A model generated the notes under the pieces. The model saw nothing but the letters and a program-made list of their open reading frames with translations, was not told the DNA's origin and made no database searches. 37,083 bases of DNA from Ktedonobacterales bacterium (GTDB lineage Bacteria > Chloroflexota > Ktedonobacteria > Ktedonobacterales > JADMIN01). The translations under genes were made by a program, and so were the position numbers. Positions 8,867 through 14,481 of the stretch are shown piece by piece; position 1 is the stretch's first letter; every line of letters begins with the position of its first letter. The stretch is taken from assembly GCA_039924685.1 (NCBI GenBank), contig JBDTAI010000209.1:1-37083 (forward strand), written 5' to 3'.

Positions 8867-10465
8867 ATGGCCGCTCAGCGGATACAGCCATCTTCCGGGA
8901 AGCAGAGATCGCGTTGTGGCGCGCTGCTGATCGCGCTTGTCGCGGTCCTCGCCGTCGCGCTGGCAGGCGTCGCGCTGGCCTACATCCACTTTGCGCCGCT
9001 GGCAGGTTTCGGCGTGTCATCCACGAAGACGCCGACGCCGCCTACCTATTCTCTCGTGGGTGGCGGGCGCTGTGTCACGCTGGGGTCGCATCCTACTGGG
9101 CCATACGCCAATGTGCAGGTCAGCCATGATAGCTTCCTTGCGCACAGTGAGCCAATGCTTGCCGAGAATCCGGCCAATCCGCTGCAACTGGTGGGCGGCT
9201 CCAAGTTCTTCACCAATCCAGCGAAGTATGCGTTCCAGATCGGCTACTTCTCTTCTTCGGATGGTGGCTGCACCTGGACCGACGGCGGATTGCTGCCGGG
9301 CTACGCCGACCGGGGGCGCGTCTCGGACATCACTATGGCGTTTGGCCCTTCGGGTCACGTCTATGCGCTTGTGCTGTACCTGGCAAAAGACTTCATAGAA
9401 AGCGGCATTGCAGTCTCGACCTCGACGGATGGCGGCAAGACGTTCGGCCAGCCGGTCGCTGTCTATGATAATCCCACAGGCGCCGTCTTTGGCGACAAGC
9501 CCTGGATTGCTGTGGACATGTCGCATGGGCCGCATCGTGGCGCCGTCTATGTCGCCTGGTCGTATGATACGGGTGCTCCCTGCGGCTATGGCAACTTCTG
9601 CATCCAGCATCTTGGCGTTGCGCGCTCGGTGGATGGCGCGCGCACATTCTCGCCAGTGCAGTTCACGGAGGGCAACGCGCCTTTCTGCACGAATGCTGTG
9701 CCGGGCCGGGCGCTTGGCGATACGCGCTGTGACAGCGTGCTGGGCGCGACGCCGGCGGTCGAGCCAGATGGCACACTTGCCATCGCCTACGCCTACTTCG
9801 ACCTGACCAGCGGCATTCAGGGGCGTCCGCTGATCCCGACGAGGCTGGTGGTGGTCACATCGCATGATGGCGGGCAGACATGGTCCACGCCCGTCCGCGC
9901 CGTAACGGTTCACGATACGCCACCCGTTGTCCCGCCCGATGACTACCGCGCATTTCCGCTGCCAGCCTTCGCCGCTGACCCTTCTACCAGCGGCAGGCTC
10001 TATCTTGCCTGGATGGATGAGCAGCAGGGGCAGAGCAATATCCTCGTCGCTACCTCACGCGACGATGGGCAAACGTGGTCTGCGCCGCTGCGAGTCAATG
10101 ACGGACCATCGGGCAGCGGGGCCACCAAAGCCGATAACGCCTCGCAGCCCGCGCTGGCGGTGGCGCCGGATGGCGTGGTCAGCGTCATCTTCTTCGATGC
10201 GCGCAACGATCCCACCCATCACCTGCTGGACCTCTACCTGACGCAATCGCGCGACCATGGGGCGAGTTTCACGTCGAACATCCGTGTGACGACGGTGAGC
10301 AGCGATCCTCGCGCGGGTGGGCCGCGTGATGAGGGTGGCCAGCTCTTCTTCGGTGACTATCAAGGGCTGGCGGCAGACAACGCCTTTGTCCACCCCTTCT
10401 GGAACGACACCCGCACCGGCAGTCAGCAGATCGAGACCGCCGCTCTCCCCAGCATCCAGCCATGA
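8867..10465 (+). CDS. Membrane-anchored BNR/Asp-box repeat protein (sialidase-like beta-propeller)
   Basis: N-terminal TM segment ALLIALVAVLAVALAGVALAYI. Five Asp-box-like motifs: SSDGGCTW, STDGGKTF, SHDGGQTW, SRDDGQTW, SRDHGASF. Confidence 0.85.
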   Translation: MAAQRIQPSSGKQRSRCGALLIALVAVLAVALAGVALAYIHFAPLAGFGVSSTKTPTPPTYSLVGGGRCVTLGSHPTGPYANVQVSHDSFLAHSEPMLAENPANPLQLVGGSKFFTNPAKYAFQIGYFSSSDGGCTWTDGGLLPGYADRGRVSDITMAFGPSGHVYALVLYLAKDFIESGIAVSTSTDGGKTFGQPVAVYDNPTGAVFGDKPWIAVDMSHGPHRGAVYVAWSYDTGAPCGYGNFCIQHLGVARSVDGARTFSPVQFTEGNAPFCTNAVPGRALGDTRCDSVLGATPAVEPDGTLAIAYAYFDLTSGIQGRPLIPTRLVVVTSHDGGQTWSTPVRAVTVHDTPPVVPPDDYRAFPLPAFAADPSTSGRLYLAWMDEQQGQSNILVATSRDDGQTWSAPLRVNDGPSGSGATKADNASQPALAVAPDGVVSVIFFDARNDPTHHLLDLYLTQSRDHGASFTSNIRVTTVSSDPRAGGPRDEGGQLFFGDYQGLAADNAFVHPFWNDTRTGSQQIETAALPSIQP

Positions 10466-10535
10466 CCGCCGACGTATCAGTGCAGGAGGAAATCGTAACT
10501 TCTTCATCACGAGGATTCACAAGTACCACATCCTC

Positions 10536-10564
10536 TTGCTTCTTGGATTGCTAGCTGTTATACT
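10536..10564 (+). promoter_or_regulatory. Near-consensus sigma70-type promoter of the low-GC islet
   Basis: TTGCTT (10536-10541), exact 17-nt spacer, TATACT (10559-10564). It lies ~90 nt upstream of the ATG at 10658. Confidence 0.5.
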
Positions 10565-10657
10565 CACTCCATTACTAGCGCGCGAGAGGTAGTTCAGCCT
10601 CACATATTCCTATTCTCTGTTTTGCACGTCCTTTGGTTTACGTTAGGACGGAATGAA

Positions 10658-11989
10658 ATGACGCAACCCTTGCACATCCCGCCAGAGCAGGAGGAACTGT
10701 TCCGGTTCACATTCAAGTCGCCCATTGATGATCACATTCGACGGTTGACGCCGGTTGAGTATGGACGGTTCATCTACTACCTTTTCCAACGAGATGGGCT
10801 ATACCATCCTGTGCTTGTCGATGGTCCAGGTGATGGTGGTGTGGACATCGAGTTGTATGCCCGTAATGGCGTCAATCCTGAACTGTGCGGTGTTGTGCAG
10901 TGCAAGCGATTCCTTCTTGAGAAAGTCACTCCCAACGACCTCGCGCCCGTCATTGTCGCCGCCAACATGGCAAAAATTACACGAAAGTATTGTTTTACGA
11001 CCTCTGGGTACACGCCCCCAGCGCGTGCTTCTGCTCGCAACAACGACGTCAAGCTATTTGACTCTGCTGACGTGCGATTCTGGATTCAAGACATAACGCG
11101 CCGCGAATCTTTAAGAACGCAGTCTCCTAATCTCCCAGACCTCGATAGCATGCCTATACCTATCATTTGTGTCACCAACAACAAGGGAGGGGTTGGCAAA
11201 ACCACACTTACTGGCAACTTGGCTGCTGCCTTTGCTACTGAGCAGCACAATGTTTTGGTTATTGACGCCGATCCACAAGGTCATTTAACCTCCTGGTTGA
11301 CAGATCAGCGACACAATGCTCCTGCGCTATCTCTACATGCCGTGCTGACACAAGACGTTCCCATTTATCCCCTTATGCAGAGAACAACAGAAAAAGGCGT
11401 TTGGATTCTCCCATCCACTCAGGAGTTGCATGAGCTTCCGGGGGGACATAATGCATGGACATTTGAGCGCAAACTAGCCCATGCGTTGGCGGCGCTACCA
11501 CTTTCTGATCCACCCATTCGCTATGTCCTAATCGATACTCCTCCTGGCTTGGGCTCCATAACGCGGTCAGCAATGCTTGCAGCCAAGTCGTTGCTGATAC
11601 CGCTGCAGCTTGAGGTGTTTTCGCTTGAAGGGCTAGATGCACTGTTGGGCTTTATTGTCCAGACCGAAACGATTCACCAGAAGAAACCGCTTCAGATATT
11701 AGGAGGAGTGGCAACACGCGTGGATATGCGCTTTCGCTGGGGGTTTCGGTTTCGTGATAGGTTTGATTTACAGAATCGCCCGCGCTTGCAGCAATCAGGG
11801 CTTACTGATGAGCAATTCTGGTGTGGGCTGTTGCGGGAGCGAGGGGAATACAAGAAATCGCAAGCCGAACACCAGTCTGTTCTTCAATATGCGCGTCGTT
11901 CTGATGCTGCCGATGACATCTGGCAGTTGGCACAGGAGGTAACACATCGTGTACCCATACTCACCCACCTTGATACCCGAATCACCTAG
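10658..11989 (+). CDS. Fusion protein: N-terminal Mrr-type restriction endonuclease (PD-(D/E)xK) domain + C-terminal ParA/MinD-type deviant Walker A ATPase
   Basis: Nuclease part: LTPVEYGRFIYYLF, GDGGVDIE, VVQCKRF (D...QxK as in Mrr), CFTTSGYTPPA, KLFDSADVRFWI. ATPase part: NNKGGVGKTT, VLVIDADPQG, YVLIDTPPGLG, C-terminal SVLQYARRSDAADDIWQLAQEV. ATG at 10658 with aggacgga upstream is preferred over the TTG at 10622. Confidence 0.85.
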   Translation: MTQPLHIPPEQEELFRFTFKSPIDDHIRRLTPVEYGRFIYYLFQRDGLYHPVLVDGPGDGGVDIELYARNGVNPELCGVVQCKRFLLEKVTPNDLAPVIVAANMAKITRKYCFTTSGYTPPARASARNNDVKLFDSADVRFWIQDITRRESLRTQSPNLPDLDSMPIPIICVTNNKGGVGKTTLTGNLAAAFATEQHNVLVIDADPQGHLTSWLTDQRHNAPALSLHAVLTQDVPIYPLMQRTTEKGVWILPSTQELHELPGGHNAWTFERKLAHALAALPLSDPPIRYVLIDTPPGLGSITRSAMLAAKSLLIPLQLEVFSLEGLDALLGFIVQTETIHQKKPLQILGGVATRVDMRFRWGFRFRDRFDLQNRPRLQQSGLTDEQFWCGLLRERGEYKKSQAEHQSVLQYARRSDAADDIWQLAQEVTHRVPILTHLDTRIT

Positions 11990-12488
11990 TGTTAGCGATT
12001 CAGATTTCGCCAGCGATGCGGTTGAGACCCACGTGCAGGCGATTCTCACCGAGTTAGAGGAACTCCCCTCTGACGTACAGTTGGCTGTCTACACACGCTT
12101 GCTGAGTGGACTGACAAACAAGCTCACGTCGACCTTAGTCAAGAATGCGCTGGCTGCCGCAAAGGTTGATCAGCAGACACCCAAGCCGAAAGGAACTATC
12201 CGCAAGGCCACTTCGGCAGGACAGAAAGCGACAACTGAGAGCGTGCCGCGCGCAAATTCGATGTTGCGCCAACTGAATGATCCTTTTGATCCCATAGAGG
12301 CATGGCGGCGATTCGGCGGTAGCGCCGCTGAGATGCTTGATGTTTTGCGTGAGGAACCACAAGGTGTTCTGGAAGCAATGCTGAGACATCACAATATGCC
12401 ACCTGGACCAAAGCCACGAGGCAAATCGCGAGAAAAACTGGCGGAAGCTATTGCTCTCAGATTGGAGCAACAGTTCCGGGGCGCCTAA
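11949..12488 (+). CDS. Hypothetical partner protein of the nuclease-ParA fusion (helical N-terminus, Lys/Thr-rich linker, helical C-terminus)
   Basis: 179-aa ORF with balanced, helix-like composition; the antisense ORF is Cys/Ser/Leu-rich junk. GTG 11949 overlaps the upstream gene by 41 nt; TTG 11970 is an alternative start. No motif recognised. Confidence 0.6.
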   Translation: MYPYSPTLIPESPSVSDSDFASDAVETHVQAILTELEELPSDVQLAVYTRLLSGLTNKLTSTLVKNALAAAKVDQQTPKPKGTIRKATSAGQKATTESVPRANSMLRQLNDPFDPIEAWRRFGGSAAEMLDVLREEPQGVLEAMLRHHNMPPGPKPRGKSREKLAEAIALRLEQQFRGA

Positions 12489-12635
12489 TACCAAGTTTGT
12501 CTGGGTTCTTGTAAAAGATTGGCGCCATTGGAGGAATCTCCACGTCTTGAGCCAACGTCAAGCTATAAGCACCTACCTCACACCGGGATAACACCTACCG
12601 TCATGGTACCTCAACAACTGTAAACGTCTGACAAC

Positions 12636-12674
12636 ATCAGCCCTCCACCTGCACAATACAAGCGGAGGGCTGAT
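12636..12674. terminator. Hairpin between the convergent islet operon and lpd
   Basis: 11-bp perfect stem atcagccctcc / ggagggctgat with a 17-nt loop. Confidence 0.55.
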
Positions 12675-12699
12675 ATGTTCGGTTGTATTGTGGCGCTAG

Positions 12700-14136
12700 C
12701 TACCGGCGGGCAGCGGCAGCCGACCGCTGGAAGATGTGGACGGCGCGGCCCTCGGCGGCCAGCGTGGCCTCACGCAGCGCCTCGCTATAGGTCGGGTGCG
12801 GGTGGATGGTGGCGATCACCTCATCCGCCGTCAGCTCGGCGCGCATCGCCAGCGAGAACTCGGTGATCAGGTTGGTGGCGTCCGGGCCAAAGATCGCCGC
12901 GCCCAGAATCTCGCCATACTCGCCGAGGATCACTTTGGTGAAGCCCTCGGTTTCACCGGTCGCCAGCGCCTTGCCGTTCGCCACCCAGGGGAACTTGTCG
13001 GCGCGCACATTGCCACTGCGTTCACGCGCCTGTCGCTCCGTCAAGCCGACCGAGGCGATCTCCGGGAAGGTGAAGATCGGGCGCGGCACGATGTTGTAAT
13101 CCATCACGGCGTCGTGGCCCAGCGCATGCTCGGCGGCCAGCTCGCCCTCCATCATGGCGACGTGCGCCAGCCAGGTCTTGCCCACCAGATCGCCGATGGC
13201 ATAGACGCCCGGCAGGTTGGTTTGCAGGTGATCATCGGCCACTACGCGCCCGCGATCCATCGCCAGCCCAGCGCGGATCAGGCCGTCGAGTCCGGCGGGG
13301 TTCGCCTTGCGCCCGACCGCCACCAGCACATACTCGGCGTCAAATGCCTTTTGCTGGCCGTCGCTGGCCGTCGCCGTCACGCGCTTCCGGCCATCGGCGT
13401 CGGCGATGGACTCCACCTTCGCGCCGACCGCAATCTCCACGCCGCGCTTGCTGAGTGAGCGGGTGAGCGCCTGGCTCACCTCTTCATCCTCGTTGGCGAT
13501 GATGGCAGGCAGCATCTCGACAATCGTAACCTTTGTTCCCAGCGCATTGAACATGCAGGCAAGCTCGACGGCGATTACTCCGCCGCCAATACAGACCAGG
13601 CTTTCAGGAACCTTCGGCATATTCATCGCGTCGTCGCTGAAGATCACATTGCGCCCATCCAGGCCAGGGAACGGCGGGGTGATCGGCACAGAGCCGTTGG
13701 CGAGGATCAGCTTGCCCGTTTCGAGTTCCTGCGTCGTGCCGTCTTTCAGGGTCACGCGCACGCGGTTGGGCGCCAGCGTCTCGGCGCTGCCCTCGAAGAT
13801 GGCGACCTTGTTGGCCTTGAGCAACTGCGCCACGCCGCCGGTAAGTTGCTTCACCACCTTGTCCTTGAAGGCGACGGCCACGCTCATATCCAGCGTTGGC
13901 TCCGCATTCAACTTGATGCCGAGCTTGTCGAGTTCGCGCAGTTCGGCGTAGATTTGGGCGATGTGCAGCAACGCCTTCGAGGGGATGCAGCCCACGTTGA
14001 GGCATGTACCGCCGATATACTGCTTCTCGACGATGCCCACCCGCGCGCCAAGCTGCGCCGCGCGGATGGCGGCGACATAGCCACCGGGTCCCGCGCCGAT
14101 CACCAGCACGTCGAACTGCGAATTTTCGTTTGCCAC
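12700..14136 (-). CDS. lpdA: Dihydrolipoyl dehydrogenase (E3 component)
   Basis: FDVLVIGAGPGGY FAD fold and the redox disulfide GGTCLNVGCIPSK. GTG start at 14136 with GAGGAG 6 nt upstream. The 47-aa upstream extension in the ORF track has no Lpd-like sequence. Confidence 0.93.
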   Translation of the reverse strand: MANENSQFDVLVIGAGPGGYVAAIRAAQLGARVGIVEKQYIGGTCLNVGCIPSKALLHIAQIYAELRELDKLGIKLNAEPTLDMSVAVAFKDKVVKQLTGGVAQLLKANKVAIFEGSAETLAPNRVRVTLKDGTTQELETGKLILANGSVPITPPFPGLDGRNVIFSDDAMNMPKVPESLVCIGGGVIAVELACMFNALGTKVTIVEMLPAIIANEDEEVSQALTRSLSKRGVEIAVGAKVESIADADGRKRVTATASDGQQKAFDAEYVLVAVGRKANPAGLDGLIRAGLAMDRGRVVADDHLQTNLPGVYAIGDLVGKTWLAHVAMMEGELAAEHALGHDAVMDYNIVPRPIFTFPEIASVGLTERQARERSGNVRADKFPWVANGKALATGETEGFTKVILGEYGEILGAAIFGPDATNLITEFSLAMRAELTADEVIATIHPHPTYSEALREATLAAEGRAVHIFQRSAAAARR

Positions 14137-14481
14137 AAGGTACTCCTCGCAGGCGATTCCACAGCGCCCAGGTCGTATGCCCAGGCCGCAAATCGCTCTG
14201 TCTCTTTCTATGTCGCGCCGACCCCCATTGGCCGACGGCATCACCACATCGTTCACAACAAAGCCATATATCAGCATATCACCGTCAGTATATGATATGC
14301 GACGGGGCCGCGCTGGTAGTGGGTGGCGACCTGGAGCAGGCGGGTGAAGCGCATCATAGTATCACGAGAGGCGCTCGTGGTACACTGATACCATATATTC
14401 CGCTGCTACCTGAGAACAAAGGTACGTCAAAGACGGCTGCCGTTCAACGTGTGGAATGTGTGTGGAGGCGACGCGAGGCTT

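Follow-up and report, generated by a model that had tools for sequence, protein, structure and literature searches.

ATPases of the ParA/MinD type are positioning and partition switches that are driven by small partner proteins, examples being ParB (Spo0J), ParG of TP228 with its ATPase ParF, omega with delta, MinE and McdB. Here we describe a two-gene cassette in a 37,083-nucleotide (nt) stretch of DNA from a Ktedonobacterales bacterium (Chloroflexota; GenBank assembly GCA_039924685.1, contig JBDTAI010000209.1, positions 1 to 37,083 of the forward strand), the whole of which is referred to as the window. The first gene of the cassette (10658–11989, + strand) encodes a fusion of an Mrr_cat nuclease domain of the PD-(D/E)xK type with a ParA/MinD-type deviant Walker A ATPase, and an open reading frame (ORF) that overlaps its end (11949–12488, + strand) encodes a protein of 179 residues, hereafter called the partner. 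With moderate confidence we regard the partner as an adaptor or regulator that binds DNA in the manner of ParB or ParG and acts on an ATP-switched nuclease within a mobile defence or addiction cassette. Neither Mrr/ParA fusions nor the partner were described in the literature searched.

The cassette resembles the known ParA/MinD systems in several respects: the partner gene directly follows, and is coupled to, that of a deviant Walker A ATPase with the signature lysine; the small protein combines a flexible basic stretch with a probable DNA-binding domain; and it is paired strictly one to one with its ATPase, with which it co-diverges. It differs from ParB in having no ParB_N (PF02195) or helix-turn-helix (HTH) match (Pfam and NCBIfam, no hit at E <= 1), and from the ribbon-helix-helix proteins ParG and omega in that its AlphaFold2 models are all-helical, without a strand. 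Moreover, the basic segment of the partner is internal (residues 74–100) and not N-terminal, the cognate ATPase carries a restriction-type nuclease domain, and the cassette forms a solitary chromosomal islet without centromere-like repeats. With type IV restriction and nuclease-NTPase (nucleoside triphosphatase) effectors containing Mrr_cat (Mrr, McrBC-like systems and LmuA of Lamassu), the cassette shares a D...E...QxK nuclease signature coupled to an NTPase as well as the behaviour of accessory, mobile DNA, whereas the NTPase of the fusion is a ParA/MinD-type dimerisation switch instead of a GTPase, helicase or SMC-like ATPase, and those systems contain nothing that corresponds to the SAP-like partner. 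Type II toxin-antitoxin systems are likewise tightly coupled two-gene units that are horizontally mobile, occur as several paralogues per genome and include a small protein which, as predicted for the partner, combines a DNA-binding domain with a disordered segment; however, the gene order and the gene sizes of the cassette are atypical for them, and no toxin or antitoxin family was matched.

The open frame of the fusion gene begins at TTG 10622 and comprises 455 codons (10622–11989). All fusion homologues begin at the position of M13, which corresponds to ATG 10658 and agrees with the 443-residue gene call, and they thus support ATG 10658 as the probable start. Pfam assigned residues 39–151 to Mrr_cat (E = 5e-11) and residues 181–351 to AAA_31 (E = 5e-33), the latter representing a complete ParA/MinD-type ATPase. 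In an alignment of 18 fusion proteins, D71, D75, E77, K188, GG, K193, TT, D215, D217 and D305 were invariant, so that the ATPase motifs, including the signature lysine K188, are fully preserved among the fusions. On the nuclease side, Q93 was nearly invariant and K95 was kept in 16 of the 18 proteins, which retain the residues D75, E77 and Q93-x-K95 together. The ParA part matched PHROG 164 (E = 9e-46) and is 30–34% identical to plasmid ParAs, while a word-indexed protein search with the Mrr region alone returned close relatives only and the LmuA match obtained with PADLOC was weak (E = 0.002).

A homologue of the partner was found directly downstream of the fusion gene in every fusion locus inspected (L001/L002, L003-5, L013, L015, L016/17, L018, L019 and G439), the junction being either an overlap of 29–41 nt or a gap of 4 nt. 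The pairing was kept behind fusions that are only 37–41% identical to that of the window, with partners (P0188 and P0189) of the same build. Among 169 genomes of the order, the partner occurred in four, which were the same four that contained a strong match to the Mrr N-domain (E < 1e-40), and the two genes were adjacent in each of them. One of the four, G174 (L014 / L038, G174:C38), a genome of the same family, holds a decayed cassette with both genes fragmented: the Mrr and ParA portions are split over separate broken frames, and only a 90-residue N-terminal part of the partner is left. Pairwise identities of the partners correlated with those of the fusions (r = 0.94), a value reached only by the true pairing among 5040 permutations. 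The conserved overlap or near-abutment, the strict co-occurrence and the co-divergence support the view, expressed in a preliminary description of this DNA, that the ORF encodes a dedicated partner of the fusion gene. In addition, a metagenomic protein of 213 residues (P0061) contains, in one frame, the C-terminal portion of a ParA domain of this family and the N-domain of the partner. The protein may result from a frameshift in a copy of the cassette or may be a fusion that exists in nature, and in the latter case it would hint at a physical association of the two proteins.

The partner ORF was present as the preliminary description had given it, with all three of the peptides quoted there: it starts at GTG 11949, comprises 179 codons and overlaps the fusion ORF, which ends at 11989, by 41 nt, whereas the alternative start TTG 11970 would leave an overlap of 20 nt. 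A Shine-Dalgarno sequence, AGGAGG (11934–11939, + strand), lies 9 nt in front of GTG 11949, and both this site and the start codon of the partner fall within the final 56 nt of the fusion gene; no comparable site was read in front of TTG 11970. Most partner homologues are 175–192 residues long, cover 99% of the query and mostly begin with M/V-Y-P-Y/H-S. The long form from GTG 11949 is therefore supported by the Shine-Dalgarno site and by the conserved MYPY N-terminus of the homologues. The assembly's own call (P0001, 151 residues) begins at GTG 12033 and lacks 28 N-terminal residues; since the Shine-Dalgarno sequence and the homologues speak for the omitted residues, P0001 is probably too short and the gene model should read 179 residues. 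The arrangement suggests that the two genes are probably co-transcribed and translationally coupled.

A search of 5.8 billion proteins yielded 35 clusters of partner homologues with 38–63% identity, and all of these approximately 35 clusters were Ktedonobacterales-like. The family is rare: no more than 34 proteins were retrieved when 1.84 billion representatives were searched exhaustively with a profile. Codon alignments of seven loci gave a proportion of nonsynonymous differences (pN) of 0.2–0.5 for the partner, compared with a saturated proportion of synonymous differences (pS) of about 0.75, and the fusion gene showed the same pattern. The partner ORF is thus a real gene under purifying selection, its homologues and its conserved place behind the fusion gene pointing the same way. 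The preliminary description had named loss of the downstream ORF from fusion homologues and a lack of purifying selection as refuting its idea, and both turned out otherwise.

The preliminary description had also proposed a tripartite build, consisting of a helical part, a basic linker and a second helical part, and this was confirmed by AlphaFold2 modelling and by the charge pattern across 29 sequences, according to which the succession of acidic helical, basic disordered and helical parts appears real and conserved. When the family alignment was used as input, helices were predicted for residues 17–38, 41–58 and 61–73 with a predicted local distance difference test score (pLDDT) of 80–89, residues 72–98 were unstructured (pLDDT below 50, linker 35–41), and residues 105–177 were modelled with a pLDDT of 86–93. 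The N-domain (residues 17–73; 11997–12167, + strand) is accordingly delimited as an acidic three-helix unit with the invariant residues Q44, R50, L51, L55, K58 and A71 and a net charge of -1 to -4 in 27 of the 28 full rows. It is followed by a basic, low-complexity and probably disordered linker (residues 74–100; 12168–12248, + strand), which is 17–32 residues long and poorly conserved in sequence but has a net charge of +2 to +6 in all 29 sequences. The remainder (residues 101–179; 12249–12485, + strand) is predicted to form a C-terminal four-helix domain, of which residues 138–177 are SAP-like; modelled alone, it reached a pLDDT of 86 and a predicted template modelling score of 0.75, with four main helices and a loop of 15 residues before the last one. 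Most of the invariant residues of the partner are located in this C-domain (L106, L109, D111, D114, P115, A118, W119 and G123, and further L133, E136, G139, H147, P151, G153, I168 and R171).

An assignment of the N-domain to sigma-70 region 4 or another HTH fold was considered and rejected: the match of the full-family profile to the PDB was not significant (E = 0.22), too few residues follow the 'GL' turn to form the two helices of an HTH, and Foldseek gave no match. The other weak PDB matches of this profile to the N-domain were to coiled-coil regions of viral spike proteins.

The preliminary description recognised no family for the partner, and the curated libraries Pfam, NCBIfam, PADLOC and PHROGs indeed contained nothing significant. 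A relationship of the C-domain became apparent through larger proteins (P0041, P0049, P0052, P0056, P0066 and others) found in the representative search, which carry the C-domain beside a related repeat, here called type-2. For P0049, which contains both domain types, the whole-protein scores for Pfam SAP and Rho_N were above the cut-offs, with no single stretch passing and the best SAP and Rho_N stretches falling inside the type-2 repeats. A profile of the type-2 repeats and related partner domains (the sister set, A5) matched the SAP domain of Ku70, its C-terminal DNA-binding domain (PDB 1jjr, E = 1.2e-7). When a diverse alignment of C-domains from the clade of the window's partner (clade A; alignment A8) was compared with A5 by hhalign, a probability of 93.4% was obtained (E = 2.5e-7, 59 columns), and less diverse clade A alignments gave 71% and 84% against the sister set. 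In the A8/A5 alignment, the partner's helix 138–145, the 15-residue loop and helix 161–177 correspond to the helix-loop-helix of SAP, and the C-domain is thus likely to be an extended SAP-type module and a predicted DNA binder. In comparison with SAP (PF02037; Ku70 1jjr) and Rho_N, with which its last two helices align, the domain of the partner clade has a much longer and strongly conserved loop (H-x-x-M-P-x-G-P-K-P-R-G-K-S) and two extra N-terminal helices with a D-P-x-D-P motif in front. Of the earlier suggestion that the partner is a DNA-binding adaptor in the manner of ParB, ParG or MinE, the DNA-binding part has gained from this relationship to SAP domains, whereas no relation in sequence or fold to ParB, ParG or MinE was found and the basic stretch is internal. 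Stimulation of the ATPase and a fixed stoichiometry, likewise suggested there, are conjectural.

The SAP-like domain is not confined to the partner clade of the window. Weaker matches to the Mrr N-domain profile were present in 53 of the order's 169 genomes, many of which contained several. All 13 paralogous loci that were read encode Mrr-ParA fusions (416–515 residues, P-loop NNKGG[VI][GA]KTT), and in nine of them the C-terminus of the downstream ORF matched the type-2 profile (E = 1e-12 to 1e-4); a downstream ORF with such a match is also present at another locus, the fusion of which the pattern had missed. Three of these downstream ORFs matched the clade A profile as well. Most fusions of this second group (clade B; loci including L039, L040, L046, L048, L051, L052, L056, L058, L059, L063 and L064) have such a partner, which is 160–195 residues long where the locus holds the whole ORF. 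Its N-terminus is a basic peptide in which the motif P-[LM]-T-x-x-Q-R-x-x-L-A is conserved, and a helical central region and a linker rich in K and P lead on to the C-domain. This peptide may be the ATPase-activating motif that is missing from clade A. Up to four to five clade B fusions are present per genome, and in a full-length comparison of the two clades only the C-domain aligned, with low probability. A SAP-like C-domain therefore appears to be the common hallmark of the partners of nuclease-ParA fusions, the pair in the window representing one clade of a diversified set.

Among the larger proteins with a copy of the partner C-domain, P0049 (1043 residues; L067:3472-6603, IMGVR_UViG_3300049215_000527) and P0056 (611 residues; L068:4653-6488, IMGVR_UViG_3300030410_000215) are encoded on viral contigs of IMG/VR and contain several SAP-like repeats in addition. 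Both genes are located in a head module, after a minor head protein gene, which in L068 is preceded by a portal gene; the gene behind P0049 in L067 is that of a head maturation protease. The best segment of the clade A-type domain of P0049 is 59% identical to the window's partner. In a tree of the domain, which compares 75 residues and has low resolution, the copies from larger proteins were scattered among those of the partners. The C-domain may have been exchanged between partners and phage proteins more than once. Its occurrence in a DNA-packaging context fits DNA binding and would allow for mimicry by virion proteins; P0049 and P0056 may serve in the virion to bind DNA or to counteract restriction. 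Restriction is blocked by certain internal head proteins, among them IPI* of T4 and the Dar proteins of P1. By analogy, the cassette could be a new restriction-like anti-phage system, in which the ParA ATP switch would license the Mrr nuclease on DNA with the SAP partner as DNA-bound regulator, and which phages of Ktedonobacteria would counter with large head-module proteins whose copy of the C-domain, set among further SAP repeats, would make them decoys or DNA shields; we put this forward as a speculative extension that is unlikely to hold.

The cassette forms an islet of 2.2 kb with a G+C content of 50–54%, compared with 60–69% in the flanks. It behaves as a small mobile accessory module, judging from this low-GC islet, its patchy distribution (the partner was detected in three of 401 genomes sampled in the phylum), the unrelated neighbourhoods, the presence of several paralogues per genome and the existence of decayed copies. 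On these grounds it is more likely to be a defence or addiction ('conflict') system than a system for DNA partition. Most copies are solitary and lie between housekeeping genes, with no mobility gene of their own. The cassette of L003-5 is located between a two-component system and adk-secY. That of L001/L002 belongs to an island which also encodes an integrase, a transposase and a serine recombinase, and that of L013 adjoins a gene that, judged from its sequence, resembles tnpB of the IS200/IS605 type. The flank of the window with a BNR-like gene is conserved in relatives, in which the lpdA flank is not adjacent; an empty insertion site could not be shown in these relatives. A pattern scan of genome contigs with the partner alignment detected no relative.

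Upstream of the cassette, a promoter-like TTGCTT-17 nt-TATACT sequence is present (10536–10564, + strand). A TTGCTy-17-TATACT sequence also occurs upstream of the L001 cassette (about L001 6600-6640), the proteins of which are only about 60% identical to those of the window. The site was not in the list of a consensus promoter scanner, and apart from it the upstream regions of the cassettes do not align. Downstream, an inverted repeat with 16-bp arms (88% complementary, 7-nt loop) forms a hairpin at 12636–12674 between the cassette and a convergent lpdA-like (dihydrolipoamide dehydrogenase-like) gene (12700–14277, - strand). This hairpin is a possible bidirectional terminator shared by the two units, although it has no T-run, for which reason a terminator scanner did not call it; the scanner listed no other terminator either.

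Taken together, we propose that the ParA moiety would dimerise with ATP on DNA and would thereby bring two Mrr nuclease domains together. The partner would be held on DNA by its SAP-like domain and the basic linker and would contact the ATPase with its N-domain or with the linker. By setting the timing of ATP hydrolysis, it could determine where and when the nuclease is active or released, a role that would correspond to that of ParB, ParG or MinE for other ParA/MinD ATPases. We infer the partner's DNA binding, its contact with the ATPase, the direction of regulation and the biological role. Several observations weigh against this proposal. The C-domain had no direct match to Pfam SAP or to any PDB sequence, the clade A C-domain profile alone retrieved nothing from the PDB sequences, and Foldseek comparisons of the full model with PDB and BFVD and of the C-domain with PDB gave nothing better than E of about 1; without such direct sequence or fold matches, the predicted SAP relationship is indirect, being transitive through a two-step profile chain. 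Residues 1–16 contain no lysine or arginine in 22 of 27 full-length partners, so the basic extreme-N-terminal peptide that is a hallmark of ParA activators appears to be missing in this clade. Furthermore, the catalytic lysine is absent from two of the 18 fusion proteins, and defence islands are not a regular setting of the cassette, near which TIR, NB-ARC or reverse-transcriptase genes occur only here and there.

The main rival explanation holds that the partner is an antitoxin or immunity protein which silences an Mrr-ParA toxin and is unstable through its disordered basic segment, so that the nuclease would be freed once the cassette is lost or translation is blocked in an infected cell, giving addiction or abortive infection. 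Several features would be expected of such a system: the compactness of the two-gene unit, its movement between unrelated sites with no mobility gene, the several paralogous cassettes per genome, each with its own partner, the decayed copies, the tight co-expression implied by overlapping coupled genes and the conserved catalytic residues of the nuclease. Type II antitoxins, moreover, usually consist of a folded DNA-binding domain and a disordered segment. However, a large-protein-first gene order and a size of 179 residues are unusual for these antitoxins, no antitoxin family was matched (the best being PHROG 6494, E = 0.22), and conservation in the partner is highest in the SAP-like domain, which also occurs in phage virion-module proteins, where neutralisation of a toxin makes little sense. 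We consider this explanation unlikely, if still the one that deserves most attention beside the adaptor hypothesis.

A true segregation system, with the partner as the centromere-binding protein (an analogue of ParB or ParG) of an integrated or extrachromosomal element and the Mrr-like domain as an extra DNA-binding or regulatory domain comparable to the N-terminal domain of type Ia ParA, is improbable. In its favour, par operons likewise place the ATPase gene in front of the gene for a small DNA-binding partner, the closest similarities of the ParA part are to the ParAs of plasmids and phages, and the island of L001/L002 carries recombination genes. However, no repeat array or centromere-like repeat was found in 10400–12750, coverage of the fusion reaches 80% in none of the plasmid records, and the partner has no match among plasmid or phage records. 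The solitary position of most copies between housekeeping genes also speaks against it, and the genome already has a canonical ParA on another contig, next to its only ParB_N gene. The nuclease residues, kept in 16 of the 18 fusions, would not be required for a purely DNA-binding role. Given the canonical ParA/ParB_N pair elsewhere, the lack of a repeat array and of a plasmid match, and the kept nuclease residues, a conventional role in DNA partition is unlikely. A partner that does no more than regulate transcription of its own operon, or whose role is unrelated to the activity of the fusion protein, is very improbable in our view. The predicted DNA-binding domain and the promoter-like site conserved between the window and L001 would be compatible with autoregulation, yet a comparison of the upstream regions, which do not otherwise align, revealed no conserved operator-like palindrome, and a physical partnership is favoured by the fact that the two genes remain strictly paired and co-diverge even at deep divergence and in paralogous cassettes.

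With the adaptor hypothesis as the preferred reading, the cassette joins the switch-and-partner logic of ParA/MinD ATPases to a restriction-type nuclease. The conserved domain of the partner is likely to be a bacterial relative of the SAP domain in a previously unannotated family, of which many paralogous cassettes have arisen within a single bacterial order and which shares this domain with phage head-module proteins. If the proposed mechanism is true, it would represent a new way of gating a nuclease, with a partner bound to DNA resetting a dimer that forms there in an ATP-dependent manner, and the cassette would be a new defence or addiction module with a possible counter-measure in phages.

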